A stretch of 64,000 nt of DNA from NCBI GenBank assembly GCA_041658625.1, contig JBAZZW010000002.1, positions 344,299 to 408,298 of the forward strand. The letters run 5' to 3'. The position numbers were made by a program, and so were the translations under genes. Below are positions 12,170-64,000 of the stretch, piece after piece; the first letter of the stretch is position 1, and each line of letters begins with the position of its first letter. This DNA comes from Actinomycetota bacterium. Its GTDB lineage: Bacteria; Actinomycetota; JAHEXW01. The notes beneath the pieces were generated by a model, which saw nothing but the letters and a program-made list of their open reading frames with translations, did not search any database and was not told the origin of the DNA.

Positions 12170-12423
12170 TGGCGGTCCGCCTTTGCACTAACATTACAGG
12201 TAGGCATTAAAATTCTGCCTTGTTCGTGATTTGCGAAGCGTATATTTGAGCCAACACTCAAATACAGGGAGCCGAGTAAGGGGGCACCCACCTGCGTGCG
12301 CACAGGGTTCAATTGCGCGGCGGACACGGCAAGGCGGAACCCTGCTAAATAGGAAATAATATATAAGAAACAAGAAACCCGCTTATGCGAGCCAAAGAAA
12401 CAATTAATAAAAAACCTGAACAG

Positions 12424-12431: not shown

Positions 12432-12498
12432 CCTTAAACATGAAATAATAAACATGGTAAGAACCGTCATCCTGGGCGAGCGGCATTTGCGAGCGCAG

Positions 12499-12518
12499 CC
12501 TGCCTGCCGGCAGGCAGG
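12499..12518. repeat. perfect palindrome CCTGCCTGCC|GGCAGGCAGG (copy 1 of 3)
   Basis: 20-nt perfect inverted repeat; identical cores near 62024-62046 and 62967-62986. Confidence 0.8.
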
Positions 12519-12605
12519 GAACTGAGACGAGGCTATGCATTCGGTCCTAGTCGTGTTTGGTGGAACAGAAACAGTAAGCAATAAACCTTAGGAAGGGAGA
12601 TTAAG

Positions 12606-14532: not shown

Positions 14533-14868
14533 GTGATCTATGTGCAACTGGCAGGCGCGGTGGCGTTGCTGGCGTTGGCTGTCTTGATTTCCGCTTTTGT
14601 TCCGGCGGCTTACCGTTTGAAGAATACCGTCGATTCCCTGGACGACATCCTCGGGAAGCTAAAAACAACAGTTGACGAGGTTAATGCTGAATTGGCTAAG
14701 GTAAACGAAACAACGGAATCCGTCCAGAAGGCCGTGTCCAGGATAGACAAAATCGCCAGCCTGCTTCAGGAAACAGTCTCTTCGCCGCTAATAAAGGTGG
14801 CCGGTTACGGGGCTGGTCTTGGCGGCGTCATTAAATCGTGGCGCGGCGGCTCGCGGAAGGGCAAATAA
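14533..14868 (+). CDS. DUF948-family membrane-anchored coiled-coil protein
   Basis: 111 aa, N-terminal TM then coiled coil. Confidence 0.5.
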   Translation: MIYVQLAGAVALLALAVLISAFVPAAYRLKNTVDSLDDILGKLKTTVDEVNAELAKVNETTESVQKAVSRIDKIASLLQETVSSPLIKVAGYGAGLGGVIKSWRGGSRKGK

Positions 14869-20676: not shown

Positions 20677-21516
20677 GTGATTACCGGAACGACAAAAATA
20701 GTCGGTATTATCGGCGACCCGGTTGCCGGGTCGTTGTCTCCGCAAATGCACAACGCCGCTTTCTCCCACGACGGATTGGACTGGGTCTACGCCGCCTGGA
20801 AGGTATCGCAAGATGATCTGGCTGACGCGATCGCGGCGGTTAGGGCTCTAGGCATAGCAGGTTTAAACGTGACGATGCCCCACAAAGGACCGGTCATCAA
20901 GTATTTGGACAGCGTTGACGATGAAGCCTTGGCGATCGGGTCTGTCAACACCATCGTTAATACTCACGGTAGGCTTAAGGGTTACACAACAGACGGAGAG
21001 GGTTTCCGTCTTTCATTAAAAGACGCCGGATATGACCCAACCGGAAAAAAAGCAATCATAATAGGCGCAGGCGGGGCGGCCAGGGCGGTCGCCCGAAAGC
21101 TGGCCGAGAGACGGGCCGCGGTGGTCGACGTCGCCTGCCGGAATCAGGAAAGCGGGCGGAAGCTCGCGGATATCGTAAAGTCGGGCGGCGCGGAATCCAC
21201 TCAATATGACATCAATGAAGAAGCGGCGGCCCCGCTAAAGCGGGCCGATATGATCATAAACGCGACACCATTAGGCAAATACTCTTTAGACGACATAAAA
21301 TTCCTGGCGGACGGGCTCAATCCCGAACAATTCGTGGCCGACTTGAGCACCGTTCCTCCGCTCAGCGCATTCCTCGTCGCCGCCCAAGAACGAGGCTGCA
21401 CCGTCATGGGCGGTTTGGGCATGCTCGTCCGTCAGGGATCTTTATCTTATAAGCTGTGGACCGGCCTGGACGCGCCCTTGGACGTCATGCGCCGGGCGGT
21501 CGGTGAGGAAAAATGA
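20677..21516 (+). CDS. aroE: shikimate dehydrogenase
   Basis: IGDPVAGSLSP…NVTMPHK…GAGGAARA motifs. GTG 20677 after AAGGAGGA is the likely start (the track ORF begins at 20602). Confidence 0.9.
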   Translation: MITGTTKIVGIIGDPVAGSLSPQMHNAAFSHDGLDWVYAAWKVSQDDLADAIAAVRALGIAGLNVTMPHKGPVIKYLDSVDDEALAIGSVNTIVNTHGRLKGYTTDGEGFRLSLKDAGYDPTGKKAIIIGAGGAARAVARKLAERRAAVVDVACRNQESGRKLADIVKSGGAESTQYDINEEAAAPLKRADMIINATPLGKYSLDDIKFLADGLNPEQFVADLSTVPPLSAFLVAAQERGCTVMGGLGMLVRQGSLSYKLWTGLDAPLDVMRRAVGEEK

Positions 21517-23189
21517 GAGAAGGAAGGAAACAGCTCGGCGACCTGTTGGTCGAACGTGGCAAAATTACAGCCGAACAACTTGACGAGGCCTTGACCCGCC
21601 AGCGCGCCAATGGGGAACCGCTGGGGCAGATGCTGGTCGACTCCGGTTACATAACGGAAACGGACCTATTAAAGATGCTGGCCGAGCAGCTGGGGCTAGA
21701 TTTTGTCGACCTTACCGAATATAAGATCGACCTGTCGGCGGTCGCTATGCTGCCGCATAACGTCGCTAAGAAGAACCTGGTCCTGCCGGTGGGTTTCGAG
21801 GAGAACAAGCTGGTCGTAGCAACGGCCGACCCTACCAACGTGTTTATCTTCGACGACTTGAGGATTATGACTGGATTTGAGATAAAACCGGTTGTCGCCT
21901 CCAAGGAAGACCTTATCGGAGCGACCGAGCGTTTTGCCCAGAGCGAAGACGTTCTTGAGGAAGCGTCCAAGGGAGAGGAGACTTTTTCCGAAGCGCAGAC
22001 GGCGGCCAAGGAAGCGGAAGAAGCGGCCGAGGAAGCGCCGATCGTCAAGCTGGTTAACCTGATAATTAACCAGGCGGTCGAGGAACGGGCGTCGGATATT
22101 CATATAGAACCCCAGGAAGACGACATGAGGATCAGATATAGGGTGGACGGTGTTTTACACGAAGTCATGCGGAGTCCCAAGAAGATTCAAGCCGGTCTTA
22201 TATCAAGACTGAAGATCATGGCCGACATGAATATTGCCGAACGCCGGGTACCGCAAGACGGCCGGATCGGTCTGGTCGTCGGCGACCGCGCGGTTGATTT
22301 CCGGGTGGCCAGCCTGCCCAGCGTCTACGGAGAACAGATGGTTTTACGTATCCTGGAGAAGGAAAGCATCATGCTGGACCTGGAGGATCTGGGATTCTTC
22401 CCGGAAACGCTCGAGGTATTTCGCAAGGCCGTCGGCAAACCTTACGGAACGGTGCTGGTCACCGGTCCAACCGGCTCGGGCAAATCAACGACTCTATACG
22501 CCACTTTAAACGTCCTCAACGTGCCGGAGAAAAATATTATGACTATCGAGGACCCCGTTGAGTACCGCCTGTCGGGCATTAGCCAGATGCAGGTCAACCT
22601 GAAGGCGGGGATGACCTTCGCGGCCGGCTTAAGAGCGGTCTTGCGCGGCGACCCGGATTGCCTGCTCGTCGGCGAGATCCGGGACAGAGAGACCGCGCTG
22701 ATCGCCATAGAAAGCGCCTTAACCGGACATCTCGTTCTCTCGACGCTTCACACAAATGACGCTCCGTCAGCGGTGACCAGGCTAATTGAGATGGGCGTGG
22801 AACCGTTTCTGATAGCCTCGGCCTTGGATTGCGTGTTGGCCCAGCGGCTGGCCCGGCGTTTGTGTAAGTACTGCAAAGAAAAGCACGTTTTGACGGGCAA
22901 AGAGGTAAAGAACCTCGGTTTTCCCGCGGATGAAACTAAGAAATACGAGTTTTACAAACCGATCGGCTGTACCCGCTGCAACAACACCGGATATAAAGGC
23001 CGGATGGGCGTTCACGAGGTAATGTTAATGACGCCGACTGTCGGGGAGCTCGCCGTTAAGAAAGCGAGCTCGGATGAGCTTATGAGAAATGCTATCAAGG
23101 AAGGCATGAATACCCTGCGGCAAGACGGCTTCAACAAAGCTCTGGCTGGCATGACGTCGTTAGAAGAGGTTATTAGGGTGGTCGCTTAA
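21513..23189 (+). CDS. pilB: type IV pilus assembly ATPase PilB/GspE (copy 1) with N-terminal tandem MshEN motifs
   Basis: Walker A GPTGSGKST, Asp/His boxes, tetracysteine CKYC…CTRC. N-terminus KQLGDLLVERGKITAEQLDEALTRQ and PLGQMLVDSGYITETDLLKMLAEQ match the 24-residue MshEN c-di-GMP-binding motif. Confidence 0.9.
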   Translation: MREGRKQLGDLLVERGKITAEQLDEALTRQRANGEPLGQMLVDSGYITETDLLKMLAEQLGLDFVDLTEYKIDLSAVAMLPHNVAKKNLVLPVGFEENKLVVATADPTNVFIFDDLRIMTGFEIKPVVASKEDLIGATERFAQSEDVLEEASKGEETFSEAQTAAKEAEEAAEEAPIVKLVNLIINQAVEERASDIHIEPQEDDMRIRYRVDGVLHEVMRSPKKIQAGLISRLKIMADMNIAERRVPQDGRIGLVVGDRAVDFRVASLPSVYGEQMVLRILEKESIMLDLEDLGFFPETLEVFRKAVGKPYGTVLVTGPTGSGKSTTLYATLNVLNVPEKNIMTIEDPVEYRLSGISQMQVNLKAGMTFAAGLRAVLRGDPDCLLVGEIRDRETALIAIESALTGHLVLSTLHTNDAPSAVTRLIEMGVEPFLIASALDCVLAQRLARRLCKYCKEKHVLTGKEVKNLGFPADETKKYEFYKPIGCTRCNNTGYKGRMGVHEVMLMTPTVGELAVKKASSDELMRNAIKEGMNTLRQDGFNKALAGMTSLEEVIRVVA

Positions 23190-24869
23190 ATGAAGGAAAG
23201 CCGGAAACAATTGGGCGACTTGCTGGTCGCTCAAGGCGTAATCAAACAGGAGCAGTTGGACGAGGCCCTGAAGACGCAGAAGGAGAGCGGGGAGCCGCTC
23301 GGCCGCGTCTTGGTTAAGAGAGGGCTCGTCACCGAGGCCGACCTGTTAAGAATTCTGGCCAACCAGCTCGGTTTGGACTACGTTGACCTGAACGAATACA
23401 AGATCGATTTAAGCGCGGTGTCGCTGATTCCGGAAAGAATAGCCAAGAAAAATGTAGTCTTACCGATAGGATTCGAGGACGACAAGTTGATTGTGGCCGT
23501 AGCGAATCCGACGGACGTCTTTATTTTTGATGACCTAAGGATGATGACGGGATTCGAGGTCCGGCCGGTGGTCAGCACAAAAGAAGATATTCTGGCTTCA
23601 ATCAGTCGGTACGCCAGGGCGGACCAGCTGGTCGGCGAGGGGCTTGACGAGTTAACTCGCGAGGTGGCCGGCGAAGCCGAGGAAGAGGAATCTATCGCCG
23701 CGGCGATAGACGAAGCGCCGATCGTGAAACTGGCCAACTTGATTATCAACCAGGCCATAAACGATAGAGCCTCGGATATTCATATCGAACCGCAGGAGAA
23801 GGACGTTCGCGTCCGTTACCGCATAGACGGCGTTTTACACGAGATCATGACGCCGCCGAAGAGAGTTCAAGCCGGGTTGATTTCCCGCATCAAAATCATG
23901 TCGGACCTTAACATCGCGGAAAATCGCGTGCCGCAAGACGGCCGCATCGGCCTGAACGTTGCCGGGCGGGCTGTCGACTTACGGGTGGCGACGCTGCCGA
24001 CGGTTTACGGGGAAAAGATCGTCATGCGTATTCTGGAAAAGGAAAGCATCATGATCGACCTCAAAGACCTTGGTTTTTTACCTGACACCCTGGAGAGATA
24101 CCAGAGATCGTTTAAGAAACCGTACGGAGCCATCCTTATAACAGGACCGACCGGTTCCGGCAAAACGACGTCGCTGTACGCGGCGCTGAACGTGCTTAAC
24201 ACGATAGAGAAGAAGATCATTACGGTCGAGGACCCCGTGGAATACAAACTACCAGGCGTCATCCAGGTTCAAATCAACGCCAGGGTCGGCCTGACGTTCG
24301 CGGCCGCCCTAAGGTCTATATTACGCAACGACCCCGATATTGTAATGATCGGTGAGATACGGGATAGGGAGACAGCCCTGATCTCCGTTGAAAGCGCGCT
24401 GACGGGCCACCTGGTTTTAGCCACCCTGCATACCAATGACGCGCCGCAAGCCTTGACCAGGCTGACCGAGATGGGTATAGAACCATTCTTGTCAGCCTCG
24501 GCCGTCGATTGCGTCGTCGCTCAGCGATTGGCAAGAAAGCTCTGCAAATCCTGCAAAGAAGCTTATACGCCGGACGAGGAATCACTAAAGGCGGCGGGCT
24601 TTCCGTTCGAAAAAGGAGAGAAGCTGACATTTTATAAGGCGGTCGGTTGCGGAAAATGTAAGGGGAGCGGATACAAAGGGCGATTGGGGATTTATGAAGT
24701 AATGCTGGTCAGTGAGACGATTGAAAAGCTGTCGGTGGAACGGGCTTCGTCCGACGAAATCGGGCGACAGGCTGTCATAGAAGGCATGAGCACGTTGAAA
24801 GACGACGGTTATGAGAAAGTCAGGCAGGGGACGACAAGCTTGGAAGAGGTTCTGAGGGTCGTCGCGTAA
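23190..24869 (+). CDS. pilB: type IV pilus assembly ATPase PilB/GspE (copy 2, tandem paralog)
   Basis: 559 aa, collinear with copy 1 (~65% identity by eye). Walker A GPTGSGKTT, tetracysteine CKSC…CGKC, intact MshEN motifs (KQLGDLLVAQGVIKQEQLDEALKTQ). Confidence 0.9.
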   Translation: MKESRKQLGDLLVAQGVIKQEQLDEALKTQKESGEPLGRVLVKRGLVTEADLLRILANQLGLDYVDLNEYKIDLSAVSLIPERIAKKNVVLPIGFEDDKLIVAVANPTDVFIFDDLRMMTGFEVRPVVSTKEDILASISRYARADQLVGEGLDELTREVAGEAEEEESIAAAIDEAPIVKLANLIINQAINDRASDIHIEPQEKDVRVRYRIDGVLHEIMTPPKRVQAGLISRIKIMSDLNIAENRVPQDGRIGLNVAGRAVDLRVATLPTVYGEKIVMRILEKESIMIDLKDLGFLPDTLERYQRSFKKPYGAILITGPTGSGKTTSLYAALNVLNTIEKKIITVEDPVEYKLPGVIQVQINARVGLTFAAALRSILRNDPDIVMIGEIRDRETALISVESALTGHLVLATLHTNDAPQALTRLTEMGIEPFLSASAVDCVVAQRLARKLCKSCKEAYTPDEESLKAAGFPFEKGEKLTFYKAVGCGKCKGSGYKGRLGIYEVMLVSETIEKLSVERASSDEIGRQAVIEGMSTLKDDGYEKVRQGTTSLEEVLRVVA

Positions 24870-43426: not shown

Positions 43427-43483
43427 CATAGGACGGAAATCCGTTCGCGAATAAGAGATTCAAACGGGAGCTGCTATGAATCA

Positions 43484-43575
43484 AGCAAGCGGGGCGGCTG
43501 AGAGGACGCGGACGCGTCGACCGTTAACACCTGATCCGGGTAATGCCGGCGGAGGAAACTCAAAAGCTAATCGAG
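43484..43575 (+). promoter_or_regulatory. TPP (THI-box) riboswitch
   Basis: GGGGCGGCTGAGAGG…ACCTGATCCGGGTAATGCCGGCGGAGGAAA matches the THI element (CUGAGA … ACCUGAUCUGGAUAAUGCCAGCGNAGGGA). Sits 5' of thiM. Confidence 0.8.
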
Positions 43576-59681: not shown

Positions 59682-59745
59682 AGATTTCCTCTCCCCTACG
59701 GGGAGAGGATTAAGGTGAGGGGACCAAGCCCCACAAGGAGCGCAT

Positions 59746-61197
59746 GTGACCGATCTAACTATAGATGAGAAGATGCCCGAGAAGCTGACCAAGAAGAGTC
59801 AGAATATGTCCCGCTGGTACACAGACGTCATCAGGATGGCTAAACTGGCCGACTATGCGCCCGTCAAGGGCTGTATGGTTATCATGCCGTACGGTTTCGC
59901 TCTGTGGGAGAACGTCAGGGACGCGCTGGACAGCCGCATCAAGGAAACCGGCCACGTAAACGCGTATTTCCCGCTCCTCATTCCGGAGAGTCTCCTCCAA
60001 AAAGAGGCCGAGCACGTGGAAGGCTTTGCGCCGGAGGTCGCCTGGGTGACGGTCGGGGGCGGGGAAGTGCTGGAAGAGCGCCTGGCCATCAGACCGACCA
60101 GCGAAGCTATTATATGCTCAATGTACAGCAAATGGATCAGGAGCTACCGCGACCTGCCGGTCCTAATCAATCAGTGGGCCAATATCCTTCGTTGGGAGAA
60201 GGTCACGCGGCTATTCCTGAGGACAACGGAGTTTCTCTGGCAAGAAGGGCACACTGTGCACGCTACGGCCGAAGAGGCCGAAGCCGAGGCTTTGAAAATG
60301 CTCGACGTCTACCGGGAGTTTGCCGAGAACGTCCTGGCCATGCCGGTACTGGTCGGCCTCAAATCGGAATCGGAGAAATTCGCCGGCGCGTCAACGACCT
60401 ACGCAATAGAGGCTTTGATGAGCGACGGGAAGGCTTTGCAGGCCGGCACCTCGCACGACCTGGGCCAGCATTTCGCCAAGGCCTTTGATATCAAGTTCCT
60501 GGACAAGGACGAAACCGAGAAGTTCGGCTGGCAAACGTCATGGGGCGTATCAACGCGGTTGATCGGAGGATTGGTCATGACGCACGGCGACGACGCGGGC
60601 TTGATCATGCCGCCTCGCATCGCGCCCGTCCAAGCTGTAATCGTGCCGATATGGGACGACACCAACAAAGAGGCGGTCGGGGCGGTCGCCAACGCTTTAA
60701 AGGACGCGCTGAGTAAGAAGTTTCGTGTAGAAGCGGACCTTCGCGACGAGTACAGACCGGGCTGGAAATTCAATGAACACGAGCTTCGCGGTGTACCTCT
60801 GCGAATTGAAATCGGTCCCAAAGACATAGAGAAAGACCAGGTTGTAGTGGTTAGACGGGACACCAAAGAAAAGATATTCATACCTCAGGCACAACTTGAA
60901 TGTGAGGTTGAGCGTTTACTGGAGGAAATCCAGCAATCTCTATACGCAAAGGCCTTAATATTCCAGAAGGAGAATACATTCAAAGTAAAAACGCTGGACG
61001 AGATGAAGAACGTGATGCGACAAACGCGCGGATTCATGGACGCGCACTGGTGTGAGTGTCCCGAGTGCGAGGATAAGGTCAAAGCAGAAACCAAAGCGAC
61101 CATACGGGTGCTGCCGTTCAACGAAGAGCAGACGGATGGAAAGTGCGCAGTCTGCGGAAAACCGGGAAGGCGAGCAATCTTTGCCCAAGCATATTAA
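59746..61197 (+). CDS. proS: prolyl-tRNA synthetase (archaeal/eukaryote-like short form)
   Basis: 483 aa. Class II motifs 1-3, C-terminal zinc motif CAVCGKPG…. Confidence 0.93.
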   Translation: MTDLTIDEKMPEKLTKKSQNMSRWYTDVIRMAKLADYAPVKGCMVIMPYGFALWENVRDALDSRIKETGHVNAYFPLLIPESLLQKEAEHVEGFAPEVAWVTVGGGEVLEERLAIRPTSEAIICSMYSKWIRSYRDLPVLINQWANILRWEKVTRLFLRTTEFLWQEGHTVHATAEEAEAEALKMLDVYREFAENVLAMPVLVGLKSESEKFAGASTTYAIEALMSDGKALQAGTSHDLGQHFAKAFDIKFLDKDETEKFGWQTSWGVSTRLIGGLVMTHGDDAGLIMPPRIAPVQAVIVPIWDDTNKEAVGAVANALKDALSKKFRVEADLRDEYRPGWKFNEHELRGVPLRIEIGPKDIEKDQVVVVRRDTKEKIFIPQAQLECEVERLLEEIQQSLYAKALIFQKENTFKVKTLDEMKNVMRQTRGFMDAHWCECPECEDKVKAETKATIRVLPFNEEQTDGKCAVCGKPGRRAIFAQAY

Positions 61198-61206
61198 GCT
61201 CAAGAT

Positions 61207-61302
61207 AAATAGACTCGCATGCTGCTCGCGATCTACCATCGTTAGTGCTTTGGGGTCAGGCCCTTTCTTCTTAAGTGATAGGGCCTGACCCCATGTTTCA
61301 AG
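61207..61302 (+). repeat. ~95-nt direct repeat with 12-bp-stem hairpin (copy A, 3' of proS)
   Basis: AAATAGACTCGCATGC…CTACCATCGTT…GGGGTCAGGCCC-(17 nt)-GGGCCTGACCCC-ATGTTTCAAG. Near-identical copy at 62008-62122. Confidence 0.85.
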
Positions 61303-61316
61303 AAAAGCATTGGTTT

Positions 61317-61324
61317 GCCGATAA
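61317..61324 (+). promoter_or_regulatory. GCCGATAA motif upstream of the GT2 gene
   Basis: Exact 8-mer 27 nt before ATG 61351. Confidence 0.25.
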
Positions 61325-61350
61325 ACCCTTCGATAAAGGATAATCAGAGC

Positions 61351-61998
61351 ATGAAAGTAATCGTGATCATTCCGGCATATAACGAAGCGGAGAGGATCGG
61401 AGCCGTCATCGGCGCCGCTAAGGCCTGCCGGGAGGTTGACGATATCCTGGTAGTTGATGACGGAAGCAAGGATGATACCGTAGAGGCGGCCAAGGAATAC
61501 GGCGTAAACGTACTGGCTTTGTCTCACAACATAGGCAAAGGCGGGGCAATGTGGTCCGCGATCATGGCCACGGACGCTGACGTGGTCGTTTTTATAGACG
61601 CCGACCTGCAGGGATTACGCCCCAAACACCTAGCGGCATTGATCCGGCCGATGCGGGAAGACGAAACCCTGGACATGACGGCCGGCCGTTTTACAGGCGG
61701 CCGCATGGCAACCGACATGTCGCAGAAGTTCATGCCCAGCATAAACAGCCAGCGTGCCATCAAACGATCTCTCTTGCTGAAGGTCCCCGACTTTAGTAAA
61801 TCCAGGTTCGGCGTTGAAACAATTATTAATGAATATATCAAGAAAAACGGGGCCAACGTCCTGGAAGTGCAGCTGGCGGGCGTTTCTCATGTTATGAAAG
61901 AAGAGAAAGACGGCCTTGTCAAAGGCGCTTCTGAACGCGCGAAAATGTACGGAGACATAATTAAGTCAAAGGTCAAGAAACAAGAACCTAAGAAATAG
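61351..61998 (+). CDS. family 2 glycosyltransferase (Dpm1/GpgS-like)
   Basis: MKVIVIIPAYNEAERI…VVDDGSKDDT…FIDADLQ (DxD). ATG 61351 after AAAGGA. The track ORF begins at 61315. Confidence 0.8.
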   Translation: MKVIVIIPAYNEAERIGAVIGAAKACREVDDILVVDDGSKDDTVEAAKEYGVNVLALSHNIGKGGAMWSAIMATDADVVVFIDADLQGLRPKHLAALIRPMREDETLDMTAGRFTGGRMATDMSQKFMPSINSQRAIKRSLLLKVPDFSKSRFGVETIINEYIKKNGANVLEVQLAGVSHVMKEEKDGLVKGASERAKMYGDIIKSKVKKQEPKK

Positions 61999-62007
61999 TA
62001 GGGAAAG

Positions 62008-62122
62008 AAATAGACTCGCATGCAGCCTGCCTGCCGCAGGCAGGCTCGCGGCCTACCATCGTTTTTGCTTTGGGGTCAGGCCCTTTCTTCATAAGCGACA
62101 GGGCCTGACCCCGTGTTTCAAG
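62008..62122 (+). repeat. direct repeat copy B (3' of GT2) carrying an inserted 23-nt palindrome
   Basis: Same module as 61207-61302, but with AGCCTGCCTGC-C-GCAGGCAGGCT inserted between GCATGC and CGCG. Confidence 0.85.
62024..62046. repeat. palindrome AGCCTGCCTGCcGCAGGCAGGCT (copy 2 of 3)
   Basis: Perfect 11-1-11 inverted repeat sharing the CCTGCCTGCC…GGCAGGCAGG core with 12499 and 62967. Confidence 0.8.
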
Positions 62123-62331
62123 TCGCAACGCCTTCGCGAACAATGCTCTCCGCTCGTGCGTGATTTGTCTGCATGCACGATATTATAAGTGCTAATTTTT
62201 CCCCCTGGGGGAGAGGAAGGAAACCCAGGGTCGAGGCTCCCGCCCGCCCTCAGTCGAGACTCGCACAACATGGGCGCTCGGCCATACTATTTAAAGACTA
62301 TTTACCGAATATAACTTATAGGATATAATTA

Positions 62332-62670
62332 GTGAAGAAGTGGAAGATTGAGTACTACACAACTGAAGCAGGGCATGTACCGGTTCGTGATTTCATCGAC
62401 GACATGCCAATAAAAGCGAAAGCCAAAACCTTTCACACGTTCGTTCTTATCGAAGAATACGGGCCGTTAGTCGGAGAACCGCACGTCAAGTATCTTGAGA
62501 AGGGTCTGTGGGAGATCCGGATTAGCGCGCTCGAGGGCATTTACAGACTAATGTTCACAACAGTAAAAGGGAAGATTATTATTCTGCTTCATGGATTTCA
62601 AAAGAAATCTCAAAAAACGCCTTTAGGTGAATTAAGGACCGCGAGAGCTAGGTTGCGGGAGGTCAAATGA
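62332..62670 (+). CDS. higB: type II toxin, RelE/ParE superfamily (HigB-like; Gp49/DUF891 family)
   Basis: 112 aa: …GLWEIRISALEGIYRLMFTTVKGKIIILLHGFQKKSQKTP… Toxin-first order with a downstream XRE antitoxin. Confidence 0.8.
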   Translation: MKKWKIEYYTTEAGHVPVRDFIDDMPIKAKAKTFHTFVLIEEYGPLVGEPHVKYLEKGLWEIRISALEGIYRLMFTTVKGKIIILLHGFQKKSQKTPLGELRTARARLREVK

Positions 62671-62945
62671 AAAACTACACGTGGGAAGAACATAAGAAAG
62701 AATTGCTAAAGGATCCCGAATTCTGCCGCGACCTAGAGGCGTGCGAACCGGAATTTGCCTTAGCGCGCGAAATAATTAAAGGTAGGATACAGGCAAGTCT
62801 TACACAGTCGGAATTGGCCAAGAAAGCGGAAACCAGCCAGGTCGTGATATCCCGCCTCGAAAATGGGCGAATGAATCCATCGGTTAACCTGCTCAAACGG
62901 GTTGCCAAAGGTCTCGGCAAACATATCTCAATCTCTTTTAAATAG
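62667..62945 (+). CDS. higA: HTH-XRE family antitoxin (HigA-like)
   Basis: 92 aa: …LTQSELAKKAETSQVVISRLENGRMNPSVNLLKRVAKGLG. 4-nt overlap with the toxin gene. Confidence 0.8.
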   Translation: MKNYTWEEHKKELLKDPEFCRDLEACEPEFALAREIIKGRIQASLTQSELAKKAETSQVVISRLENGRMNPSVNLLKRVAKGLGKHISISFK

Positions 62946-62960
62946 ACGCAACATTGTATT

Positions 62961-63002
62961 CCTCTCCCTGCCTGCCGGCAGGCAGGCCTCGAGAGGGAGA
63001 GG
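62961..63002. repeat. extended hairpin containing the palindrome core (copy 3 of 3)
   Basis: CCTCTCCCT-GCCTGCCGGCAGGCAGG-cctcgag-AGGGAGAGG, immediately 3' of higA after the AAATAGAC motif. Confidence 0.8.
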
Positions 63003-63019
63003 GTAGGGTGAGGGTGAAA

Positions 63020-64000
63020 ATGCGTAAGTTTTTCACGGTCATATTCTTTCTTCTGTTTACTTTACTATTTACCTTCGTTCTGCTGCTTGGCGAACTGAAG
63101 TTCTACGTCCTGACGCCAGCTTTCATCAAAGACCCGATGCGGGAGACGCAAGTCTACAGTAAACTTGTCAAGAATGCCGACGCCTTGACAAGCATCATGC
63201 AAGGCCAGGACCCGGCGATTGAGCAGGGGATCGCACAGATGCCGGAGGCGGCGCAGAAACTATCACAGGCAATGCTGAAATCGGTGGATGAGAAGTGGAT
63301 GGAGAGGGAAGCGGAAAAGGGAATTGACGCGCTTTACGCATACGCGACGACTGACCAGCCGGACGTAAAGATAAGCCTCGACCTGAAAGACTTTAAGACC
63401 AGGTTGCGCAAGAATCTCTACACATACATGCTGGAAGAATATAACAAGTTGCCGGAAGTACCGTTGGAGCAATTCGATCAGCAGATGGCGCAGAAACCAG
63501 GCCAGTTTCCAACCACGCGGCCGGCCGGCTTCACTCTTGAGCAGACTCTAGCCAAAACCGGCCTGAATCCTTTGGACGAGATTATGAAGAACATCCCGGA
63601 CAAGTACGACTCCAGCTTTACTGATAAAAACCAACCCGAAGCTATGGAGGGCCTGGCAGGATTCAAGCAAGTGAAGACCGTGCTTAACGCCCTGAGCATT
63701 ATTTTCTGGGTTTTGCTGGGGGTAATTATCGTCTTCCTCCTACTGTTCGCCAAGCTAACCAGTAGAACACTGTTGGAATTCTTGATGCGTCTAGGCATCT
63801 TCTTATCCGCGGCGCTGGTTCCATTCTTAACATTTGCCATCCTGTGGTATGTGACGACAAACATATTCCTGGTTGAAGGACTGGCTCGCCTAGATTTCCC
63901 GTCGCTGGTGGTCAAGCAGATCGTTGAACCGTTGGCAGCGTACACAGTCGGCCGGGTGTTCATACATCTGTTGGCCTGGTCCGGCGCAATGTCGGTGGTT
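63020..64000 (+). CDS. hypothetical membrane protein (5' partial within window; runs off the end)
   Basis: ATG 63020 after G-rich RBS. MRKFFTVIFFLLFTLLFTFVLLLG N-terminal TM, then C-terminal TMs. No stop before 64000. Confidence 0.5.
   Translation, partial: MRKFFTVIFFLLFTLLFTFVLLLGELKFYVLTPAFIKDPMRETQVYSKLVKNADALTSIMQGQDPAIEQGIAQMPEAAQKLSQAMLKSVDEKWMEREAEKGIDALYAYATTDQPDVKISLDLKDFKTRLRKNLYTYMLEEYNKLPEVPLEQFDQQMAQKPGQFPTTRPAGFTLEQTLAKTGLNPLDEIMKNIPDKYDSSFTDKNQPEAMEGLAGFKQVKTVLNALSIIFWVLLGVIIVFLLLFAKLTSRTLLEFLMRLGIFLSAALVPFLTFAILWYVTTNIFLVEGLARLDFPSLVVKQIVEPLAAYTVGRVFIHLLAWSGAMSVV

Follow-up and report, generated by a model that had tools for sequence, protein, structure and literature searches.

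Behind the prolyl-tRNA synthetase gene proS, and again behind the adjoining gene for a GT2 glycosyltransferase (GT2), a 64,000-nt stretch of Actinomycetota DNA (hereafter the window) carries copies of a module about 100 nt or more in length. We assign this module, with a probability of about 0.7, to a new repeat family of an uncultivated Actinomycetota population: small mobile elements, non-coding and non-autonomous, that are possibly mobilised in the manner of IS200/IS605-derived palindrome-associated transposable elements (PATEs) and are co-transcribed with the host operon. The element is dispersed, polymorphic, non-coding and modular, and it is tied to a target motif, AATAG. The family is new; the kind of object, a small intergenic mobile repeat, is well known.

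Copies A and B and their dispersed relatives

The original prediction placed the same module at 61207-61302 (copy A) and 62008-62122 (copy B), and this was borne out by 90% identity across 79 gap-free nt. The two copies start at 61207 and 62008, each 10 nt past a stop codon, that of proS and that of GT2, respectively. The proS stop (TAA, 61195-61197) is native and is kept in relatives, as judged by alignment. Common to both copies are AAATAGACTCGCATGC, CTACCATCGTT and a hairpin in which GGGGTCAGGCCC and GGGCCTGACCCC enclose 17 nt; this hairpin occurs exactly twice in the 64 kb, and 0/100 shuffles contained even one. The 12-bp stems are identical, as had been claimed. Of the four loop differences counted earlier, three fell within the 17-nt loops and the fourth lay 1 nt 3' of the stem. 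The identical stems had been taken as a sign of conserved structure; without compensatory change, the stems themselves indicate only sequence conservation. The additional palindrome in copy B is real, but its insertion was not clean: 2 nt were replaced, with 19 nt gained overall. Copy B had also been drawn too short, as it continues to about 62187 with an extension that is common to copies elsewhere. The AAATAGAC reported after the higA stop was present, but the rest of the module was missing there; because AATAG belongs to the target (see below), this site resembles the module start without being one.

The alignment of all copies placed the start of the complete unit at ACTCGCATGC and its end at about ...GCATGCTCGATCTTATTA. 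The full element measures ~160 nt, or ~180 nt with the nested palindrome (about 160-185 nt for full units; 40 to 185 nt with mini copies included). It is built of a left end (ACTCGCATGC...CGCGGCCTACCATCGTT), a 61-nt unit with the invariant 12-bp hairpin, which may be missing, and a right end (TCGC...AACAATGCTCTCCGCTCG...GCATGCTCGATCTTATTA). About 75 nt past the module as first described are common to B, C (below) and other copies. A profile search of the window returned no further copies. The 3' 50 nt of copy A were considered as a decayed right end whose GCATGC gives the GT2 start; this was rejected, as the alignments were no better than shuffles (p 0.19-0.96).

Copy C lies behind the next gene of the operon, which encodes a 378-aa membrane protein (L121, 14406-14583, equivalent to window positions ~64151-64328, ~150 nt beyond the window end). 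It showed 94% identity to copy B over 179 nt, with a palindrome in the same position. A 22-nt exact scan of JGI metagenomes yielded five more stretches, with four copies on one 104-kb contig, on both strands. Five further copies were located at unrelated sites: after the apgM stop (L126/L139), behind tRNA-Thr(TGT) and behind a tRNA-Thr 3' pseudo-fragment (both L127), behind a tRNA-Thr(CGT) fragment (L128) and ~160 nt from tRNA-Gln on the opposite strand (L124/L128). The genes around the copies are housekeeping genes. The 61-nt hairpin unit is missing from one copy (L127a), and three mini copies (window 62259-62293, L024 and L139) retain both termini only. Three independent contigs (L123, L142 and L024) terminate within the element, as expected of a multi-copy repeat, at which assemblies typically break. 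In ~180 kb of available sequence, the element occupied no fewer than 8 sites, with 3 mini copies in addition, which is in kind the spread over many unrelated sites that the original prediction had named as speaking against its own model. The apgM contigs share ENA samples with the window contig, and the 'other' copies may come from the same genome or a close relative; between-genome identity of copies was not used as an argument. A weak distant homologue in another actinobacterial metagenome-assembled genome (MAG; L025) lies in a 3' untranslated region (UTR) ahead of a canonical terminator.

In L127 (2595-3170) and L128 (1163-1960), tRNA-Thr genes have decayed duplicates of their own 3' halves behind them (...GGAGGCGCGAC-AGGTCGGGAGTTCAAATC...GGCTCCA), and the module follows each decayed half 5 nt later. 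The arrangement resembles what integrase att duplications at tRNA-Thr would leave behind, layered with repeat insertions.

We also scanned 185,579 genomes with the stem alone and obtained 120 hairpins with the same 11-nt stem in many phyla. BLAST and profile checks indicated that only L024 was the same element and L025 a weak homologue. The stem-only pattern is unspecific, as half of it is satisfied by any hairpin. Shuffled-stem control scans of viral contigs gave 0, 0 and 2 matches and were uninformative on over-representation of the stem. Multi-copy palindromic repeats built around the stem GGGTCAGGCCC/GGGCCTGACCC occur in at least 12 unrelated lineages (L001-L120), including a proteobacterial MAG (>12 matches), Vicinamibacteria, Ilumatobacter, Prevotella, Omnitrophota, Gaiellales and Lachnospiraceae. 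These repeats have their own loop and flanks in each lineage, and the stem may be over-represented or just a frequent GC-rich hairpin. Plasmid and phage collections contained no match to the element, and a literature search for the stem sequence returned nothing relevant.

The AATAG target and the history of the operon

AATAG was found at 9/9 of the 5' junctions of the element. The junction continues with ACTCGC, except for TCTCGC in copy C and ACGAGC in L124. The sequences upstream of AATAG are unrelated to each other: the ends of proS, GT2, the 378-aa gene and apgM, and the trailers of tRNA-Thr genes or their 3' pseudo-fragments. Two contigs of a relative (L137 and L138; 84% protein identity) have an empty apgM site, which reads ...GGAAATAG followed by TCTTTT. 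The filled site reads ...AACAATAG followed by ACTCGC, the start of ACTCGCATGC, at exactly the position of the empty-site AAATAG. Since AAATAG is already in place at the empty site, AATAG is part of the target, and insertion takes place directly 3' of it. The TAG of this target is often a stop codon, and copies therefore sit at or just behind stop codons, and behind tRNA genes; TAG is the genuine stop of the 378-aa gene and of apgM. The idea that the element provides an in-frame TAG to upstream genes was rejected, since the relative's apgM already ends in AAATAG. In A and B alike, the TAG of AATAG lies in frame exactly 15 nt past the native stop (61195-61212 and 61996-62013), and AAGAAATAG occurs twice before copy B, at 61990-61998 and 62005-62013, 6 nt apart. 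These features may represent coincidence, a small duplication or a carried-over flank.

No repeat of the 5' flank was visible at the 3' end of 8 copies, and no clean pair of empty and filled sites was found for the 3' junction. The 3' tip of the apgM-adjacent copy holds an IS481-like insertion sequence (IS) with a 388-aa rve transposase, ends TGTGAAAGCCGG... and an apparent TAC duplication (L139, 9996-11296; the IS is also present in L140, L141 and L125). It was rejected as the parent element: its ends are unrelated, and it is merely inserted in the copy.

The relatives showed what had been inserted into what. In five of them, GT2 follows proS directly without the module (GT2 identity 91, 86, 85, 81 and 70%), and a profile search of these loci (L129, L130, L131, L134 and L135) found no element. 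GT2 starts at a TTG within the last 17 nt of proS in L129 (91%), L130 (86%) and L134 (85%); short unrelated spacers separate the two genes in L135 (81%) and L131 (70%). The GT2 stop in L129 overlaps the ATG of the same membrane-protein gene as follows in the window. Judged from these sequences, the densely packed operon proS-GT2-(378-aa gene) is old. The repeats therefore entered the old operon, and GT2 did not enter between repeats, as the original prediction had supposed for a GT2 cassette inserted or duplicated between the copies; the position of GT2 between two copies is the chance result of two hits. Additions to the operon in the window lineage are copies A and B, the mini copy, the higBA pair, two repeats of a second family and copy C. 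The proS and GT2 genes, which overlap by 17 nt in relatives, are 153 nt apart in the window. GT2 is thus not a recently acquired cassette, and there was no hint here of horizontal transfer of the glycosyltransferase.

Folding, mode of movement and alternative readings

Folds of both RNA strands of the element were stabler than those of shuffles (z -4.5 to -5.9). The element ends can pair as GCATGC/GCATGC, and L128a has GCGTAC/GTACGC, with both sides changed together. Covariation exceeded that of all 500 shuffles in models of both strands, although seven sequences are too few for covariation statistics. The folded strand is ambiguous: one G-U favours the + strand (terminal helix), and several U-G favour the - strand (another helix). 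The stems and the following GTGTTTCAAGTCGC were 100% identical among six full-length copies, the next 14 nt after the stems included, whereas identity was 81% in the left end, 86% in the loop and 77% in the right end. Comparison of these copies points to a sequence-specific constraint on the hairpin, beyond pairing. The terminal complementarity spans ~15 nt and is imperfect, with two indels, and its core GCATGC is itself palindromic. Besides one large central hairpin there is a small left-end hairpin (TCGC...GCGR), and no right-end hairpin was evident.

The original prediction had read the module as a duplicated 3' terminator. No T-run was found behind the stem, as the 17-nt-loop hairpin is followed by ATGTTTCAAG or GTGTTTCAAG, and an intrinsic terminator scan of the stem region returned only a spurious 5-bp sub-stem. 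Copies also stand behind tRNA genes, one variant has no hairpin, and the L025 homologue precedes a canonical terminator of its own; these results argue against a terminator. The element gave no coding signal, and its frames are broken between copies. Among 5.8 billion proteins, the search for an element open reading frame (ORF) returned one spurious ORF only, from L125 itself. A minus-strand small protein (...LETRGQALS..KKGPDPKA...) was rejected on account of indel frame shifts and a stop in L127b. An Rfam search of 61000-63100 gave nothing at the gathering threshold and only chance-level matches (E 2.9-8.3, at E<=10).

For the mobile-repeat reading, we propose that a transposase acting in trans would recognise the flanking target motif and the folded ends of one DNA strand. 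Mobilisation would be of the IS200/IS605 type ('peel and paste'), and the element would be a PATE-like miniature inverted-repeat transposable element (MITE). This mode is suggested because the 5' motif is fixed, no duplication is visible, all three local copies lie on the G-rich strand and the end changes are compensatory. The GC skew is +0.05 to +0.11 along the + strand of the window, and all genes and copies A, B and C are on +. On the 104-kb contig, 4/5 copies are on +, with no known replication direction there. The properties of the IS200/IS605 and PATE families used here, namely the single-strand 'peel and paste' logic and the gene-less derivatives, are taken from PMC10055086. The conserved operon proS-GT2-(378-aa gene) was struck three times (A, B and C), and in addition by higBA and the second repeat family. 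Tolerated insertions pile up behind genes and tRNA genes via the TAG in AATAG. Once inserted, the element would be transcribed with the operon. Its GC-rich hairpin would then be less likely to act as a terminator than as a barrier in mRNA processing or stability, and the insertion would uncouple formerly overlapping genes.

Several points weigh against this reading. Neither the 64-kb window nor the fetched loci contained a transposase with matching ends; the only IS by a copy was the unrelated IS481-like one, and no Y1 HUH TnpA was found in the neighbourhoods of the copies. One large central hairpin with ~15 nt of imperfect terminal complementarity is atypical for IS200/IS605, in which a hairpin usually lies close to each end and terminal inverted repeats are lacking. 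A target-site duplication may have escaped notice, as the 3' junction has no clean pair of empty and filled sites and the IS481-like IS occupies the tip of the apgM copy. The sample comprises only 8 full or partial and 3 mini copies, from one or two closely related populations. Finally, the invariance of the hairpin stems and the next 14 nt, compared with 77-81% in the ends, could equally reflect a host function.

That last point leads to the reading of the element as a host-selected structured RNA, either a cis-element of 3' UTRs and intergenic regions or a multi-copy small RNA, with a function such as 3'-end protection, processing or protein binding and with rare spread by duplication or recombination. 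It would account for the folding z-scores, for the compensatory changes in the terminal and small helices with covariation above shuffles, and for stems and GTGTTTCAAGTCGC that are invariant against 77-86% identity elsewhere. Each copy is also co-oriented with the upstream gene or tRNA wherever one is identifiable, and the distant homologue L025 stands in a 3' UTR before a true terminator. However, no Rfam family matched, the G-U evidence on the strand conflicts between helices, and seven sequences are a small basis for covariation. Size variants occur without the hairpin or without the entire interior, relatives have the same operons without the element, and the fixed AATAG flank and the contig breaks indicate mobility. 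We therefore consider this explanation unlikely.

Another reading is a conventional MITE, for example of the IS630/Tc1-like type, that moves by cut-and-paste, is bounded by terminal inverted repeats and duplicates TA or a similar target; the element would then read TA, then GACTCGCATGC...GCATGCTCGAYC, then TA. In its favour, AATAGACTCGCATGC shows imperfect inverted complementarity to the other end (compared with the reverse complement of GCATGCTCGATCTTATT), TA stands before GAC at every 5' end and 0-9 nt past GCTCGAYC at most 3' ends, and the mini copies keep the two termini only. Yet TA duplication leaves unexplained the conserved AA 5' of TA (9/9) and the G that follows, as well as the strand bias, and the position of the 3' TA varies. 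The GCGTAC/GTACGC change fits pairing better than recognition of two identical ends by a protein. These discrepancies make a TA-duplicating MITE rather improbable.

Hardly tenable is the reading of the original prediction, in which the insertion or duplication of a GT2 cassette behind proS had doubled a 3' terminator or stability element and left the repeats as scars or att-like borders: GT2 is indeed flanked by two co-oriented copies, each 10 nt past a stop codon, but proS and GT2 adjoin without the module in five relatives and even overlap in three of these, a third copy stands behind the next gene, other copies occupy unrelated loci and sites behind tRNAs, and the stem has no T-run.

A further-reaching form of the mobile-repeat reading is tentative and rather doubtful: a single-strand MITE that homes via AATAG to TAG stops and tRNA trailers would act as mobile operon punctuation, with the hairpin as a candidate binding site for a host or transposon protein or as part of a guide-RNA-like scaffold.

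Among known systems, PATEs, which are gene-less IS200/IS605 derivatives, resemble the element in being small and non-coding with hairpins, in inserting directly 3' of a fixed 4-5-nt motif without obvious duplication, and in single-strand folding, a possible strand bias and a transposase in trans, the last of which would apply to our element as well (PMC10055086). Unlike PATEs, which carry similar hairpins close to either end, the element has one large central hairpin, and its ends are imperfectly complementary to each other; no cognate tnpA/tnpB was found near the copies, and the element is only a candidate PATE. To our knowledge, AATAG is not among the target motifs of described PATE-type members. 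The element also has generic MITE features: it is shorter than ~300 bp without coding capacity, it is dispersed at non-homologous sites, and empty sites exist (the proS/GT2 junctions in 5 relatives and the apgM site in 2 contigs).

Correia repeats of Neisseria and the ERIC/IRU repeats of enterobacteria are 100-150-nt intergenic operon repeats that are co-transcribed and whose long hairpins affect mRNA processing and stability. Both have size variants that arose via internal deletions or insertions, and both are near-perfect long inverted repeats, Correia with a TA duplication. Our element as a whole, in contrast, is no palindrome, and its fixed flank is on one side only. BOX elements of Streptococcus pneumoniae are modular (boxA-boxB-boxC), with middle modules optional or repeated; we know of no fixed target motif for them. 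Our element is likewise modular, its left and right ends being complemented by a hairpin unit and nested palindromes, both of which may be missing, but it has no sequence relation to BOX. MIRUs are actinobacterial repeats between operon genes, at stop and start codons, and consist of 40-100-bp tandem direct repeats with small ORFs for translational coupling, whereas the element is non-coding and present as a single copy per site. Repetitive extragenic palindromes (REP) and the related BIME and REPIN resemble the nested 23-nt GC-rich palindrome, which is short, intergenic and found alone or inside other repeats, and perhaps also the 12-bp hairpin unit. Unlike REP/REPIN, which are imperfect palindromes of 20-40 nt, often in inverted pairs and associated with a RAYT, the 160-nt module is far longer and not palindromic overall, and no GTAG-type motif or RAYT gene was seen; in size and shape, only the nested 23-nt palindrome agrees with them.

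Nested repeats and the setting of the window

The original prediction regarded the palindrome in copy B as a separate insertion event, and the results agreed: the same GCCTGCCTGCCGGCAGGCAGG occurs alone elsewhere, and 3/8 module copies carry the palindrome. GCCTGCCTGCCGGCAGGCAGG measures 22-23 nt and was located in the window at 12498-12520, 62965-62987 and 62024-62046. It stands alone at 12498, and it lies in the loop of a second-family repeat at 62966 and in that of another repeat in L128. Its nesting in two repeat families suggests insertion into hairpin loops or palindrome growth.

The second repeat family takes the form CCTCTCCCC-loop-GGGGAGAGG and then (A/T)(A/T)AGGTGAGGGG, usually right behind ...ATT or TTT. 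It also occurs in L121 (~14588-14630), L128 (1440-1470, 1528-1585 and 1866-1900), L024 and L139 (11305-11345), and it adjoins the 3' end of the module in four cases (C, L124, L125/L139 and the L024 mini copy). The module and the second family may travel or target together.

Of the toxin-antitoxin pair, higB belongs to Gp49/DUF891 and higA to HTH_3. The closest relative, L129, has no higBA, and there GT2 and the 378-aa membrane-protein gene overlap (TAATG). The real-looking long ORFs of the window (1-64000) are all on +, with positive GC skew throughout; the window is a strongly co-directional leading-strand region. Rfam matches at the gathering threshold in the window were a SAM riboswitch (196-303), 6S RNA (12209-12344) and a TPP riboswitch (43454-43575). 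A 300-nt direct repeat of 71% identity (22029-22328 and 23709-24008, spacing 1680 nt) sits within two adjoining ORFs of ~558 aa (21513-23189 and 23190-24869), which are probably tandem paralogues. The features around the element are listed in Table 1.

Table 1. Coordinates of the repeat copies and the genes around them in the window
Feature	Position	Strand	Remarks
Second repeat family, solo copy	59687..59725	+	between ispG and proS
proS	59746..61197	+	class II prolyl-tRNA synthetase, 483 aa; PF00587, PF03129, PF09180
AATAG target motif 5' of copy A	61208..61212	+	invariant at 9/9 junctions; pre-existing AAATAG at the empty apgM site
Copy A	61213..61302	+	left-end unit and hairpin unit only; truncated after TTTCAAG; profile positions 1-96
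Copy A hairpin	61252..61292	+	12-bp stem, 17-nt loop, no T-run behind
Unique spacer, 48 nt	61303..61350	+	holds Shine-Dalgarno AAAGGA; adjoins GT2 ATG 61351-61353; outside the repeat
GT2 glycosyltransferase	61351..61998	+	215 aa; same call in the source contig; PF00535; resident of the proS operon by synteny (L129, L130, L131, L134, L135)
AATAG target motif 5' of copy B	62009..62013	+	
Copy B	62014..62187	+	full-length: left end, nested palindrome, hairpin unit, right-end unit ending ...GCATGCACGATATTATA; profile 1-158, E=3.5e-49
Nested palindrome AGCCTGCCTGCCGCAGGCAGGCT, 23 nt	62024..62046	.	in the loop of the left-end mini-hairpin of copy B
Copy B hairpin	62072..62112	+	stems same as in copy A
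Degenerate mini copy	62259..62293	+	ACTCGC, 11 nt, then GCTCGGCCATACTATTTA; termini only; AATAG lost
higB-higA toxin-antitoxin pair	62332..62945	+	inserted between GT2 and the 378-aa gene; missing in L129
Second repeat family (CCTCTCCC...GGGAGAGG + GGTGAGGG)	62958..63015	+	GCCTGCC palindrome nested in the loop

A repeat family defined by its boundaries, modules and target motif in a poorly known Actinomycetota lineage aids annotation and explains contig breaks, and its copies give markers for strain typing. If the AATAG mechanism holds, a short motif would confine a selfish element to the safe zone behind stops and tRNAs, and the operon would show such insertions pulling overlapping genes apart. 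If the element does act as mobile operon punctuation, its insertion would separate genes that are coupled in translation and place a sequence-invariant hairpin in the transcript, and the nested palindromes would represent a second tier of elements, with hairpin loops as their insertion sites.

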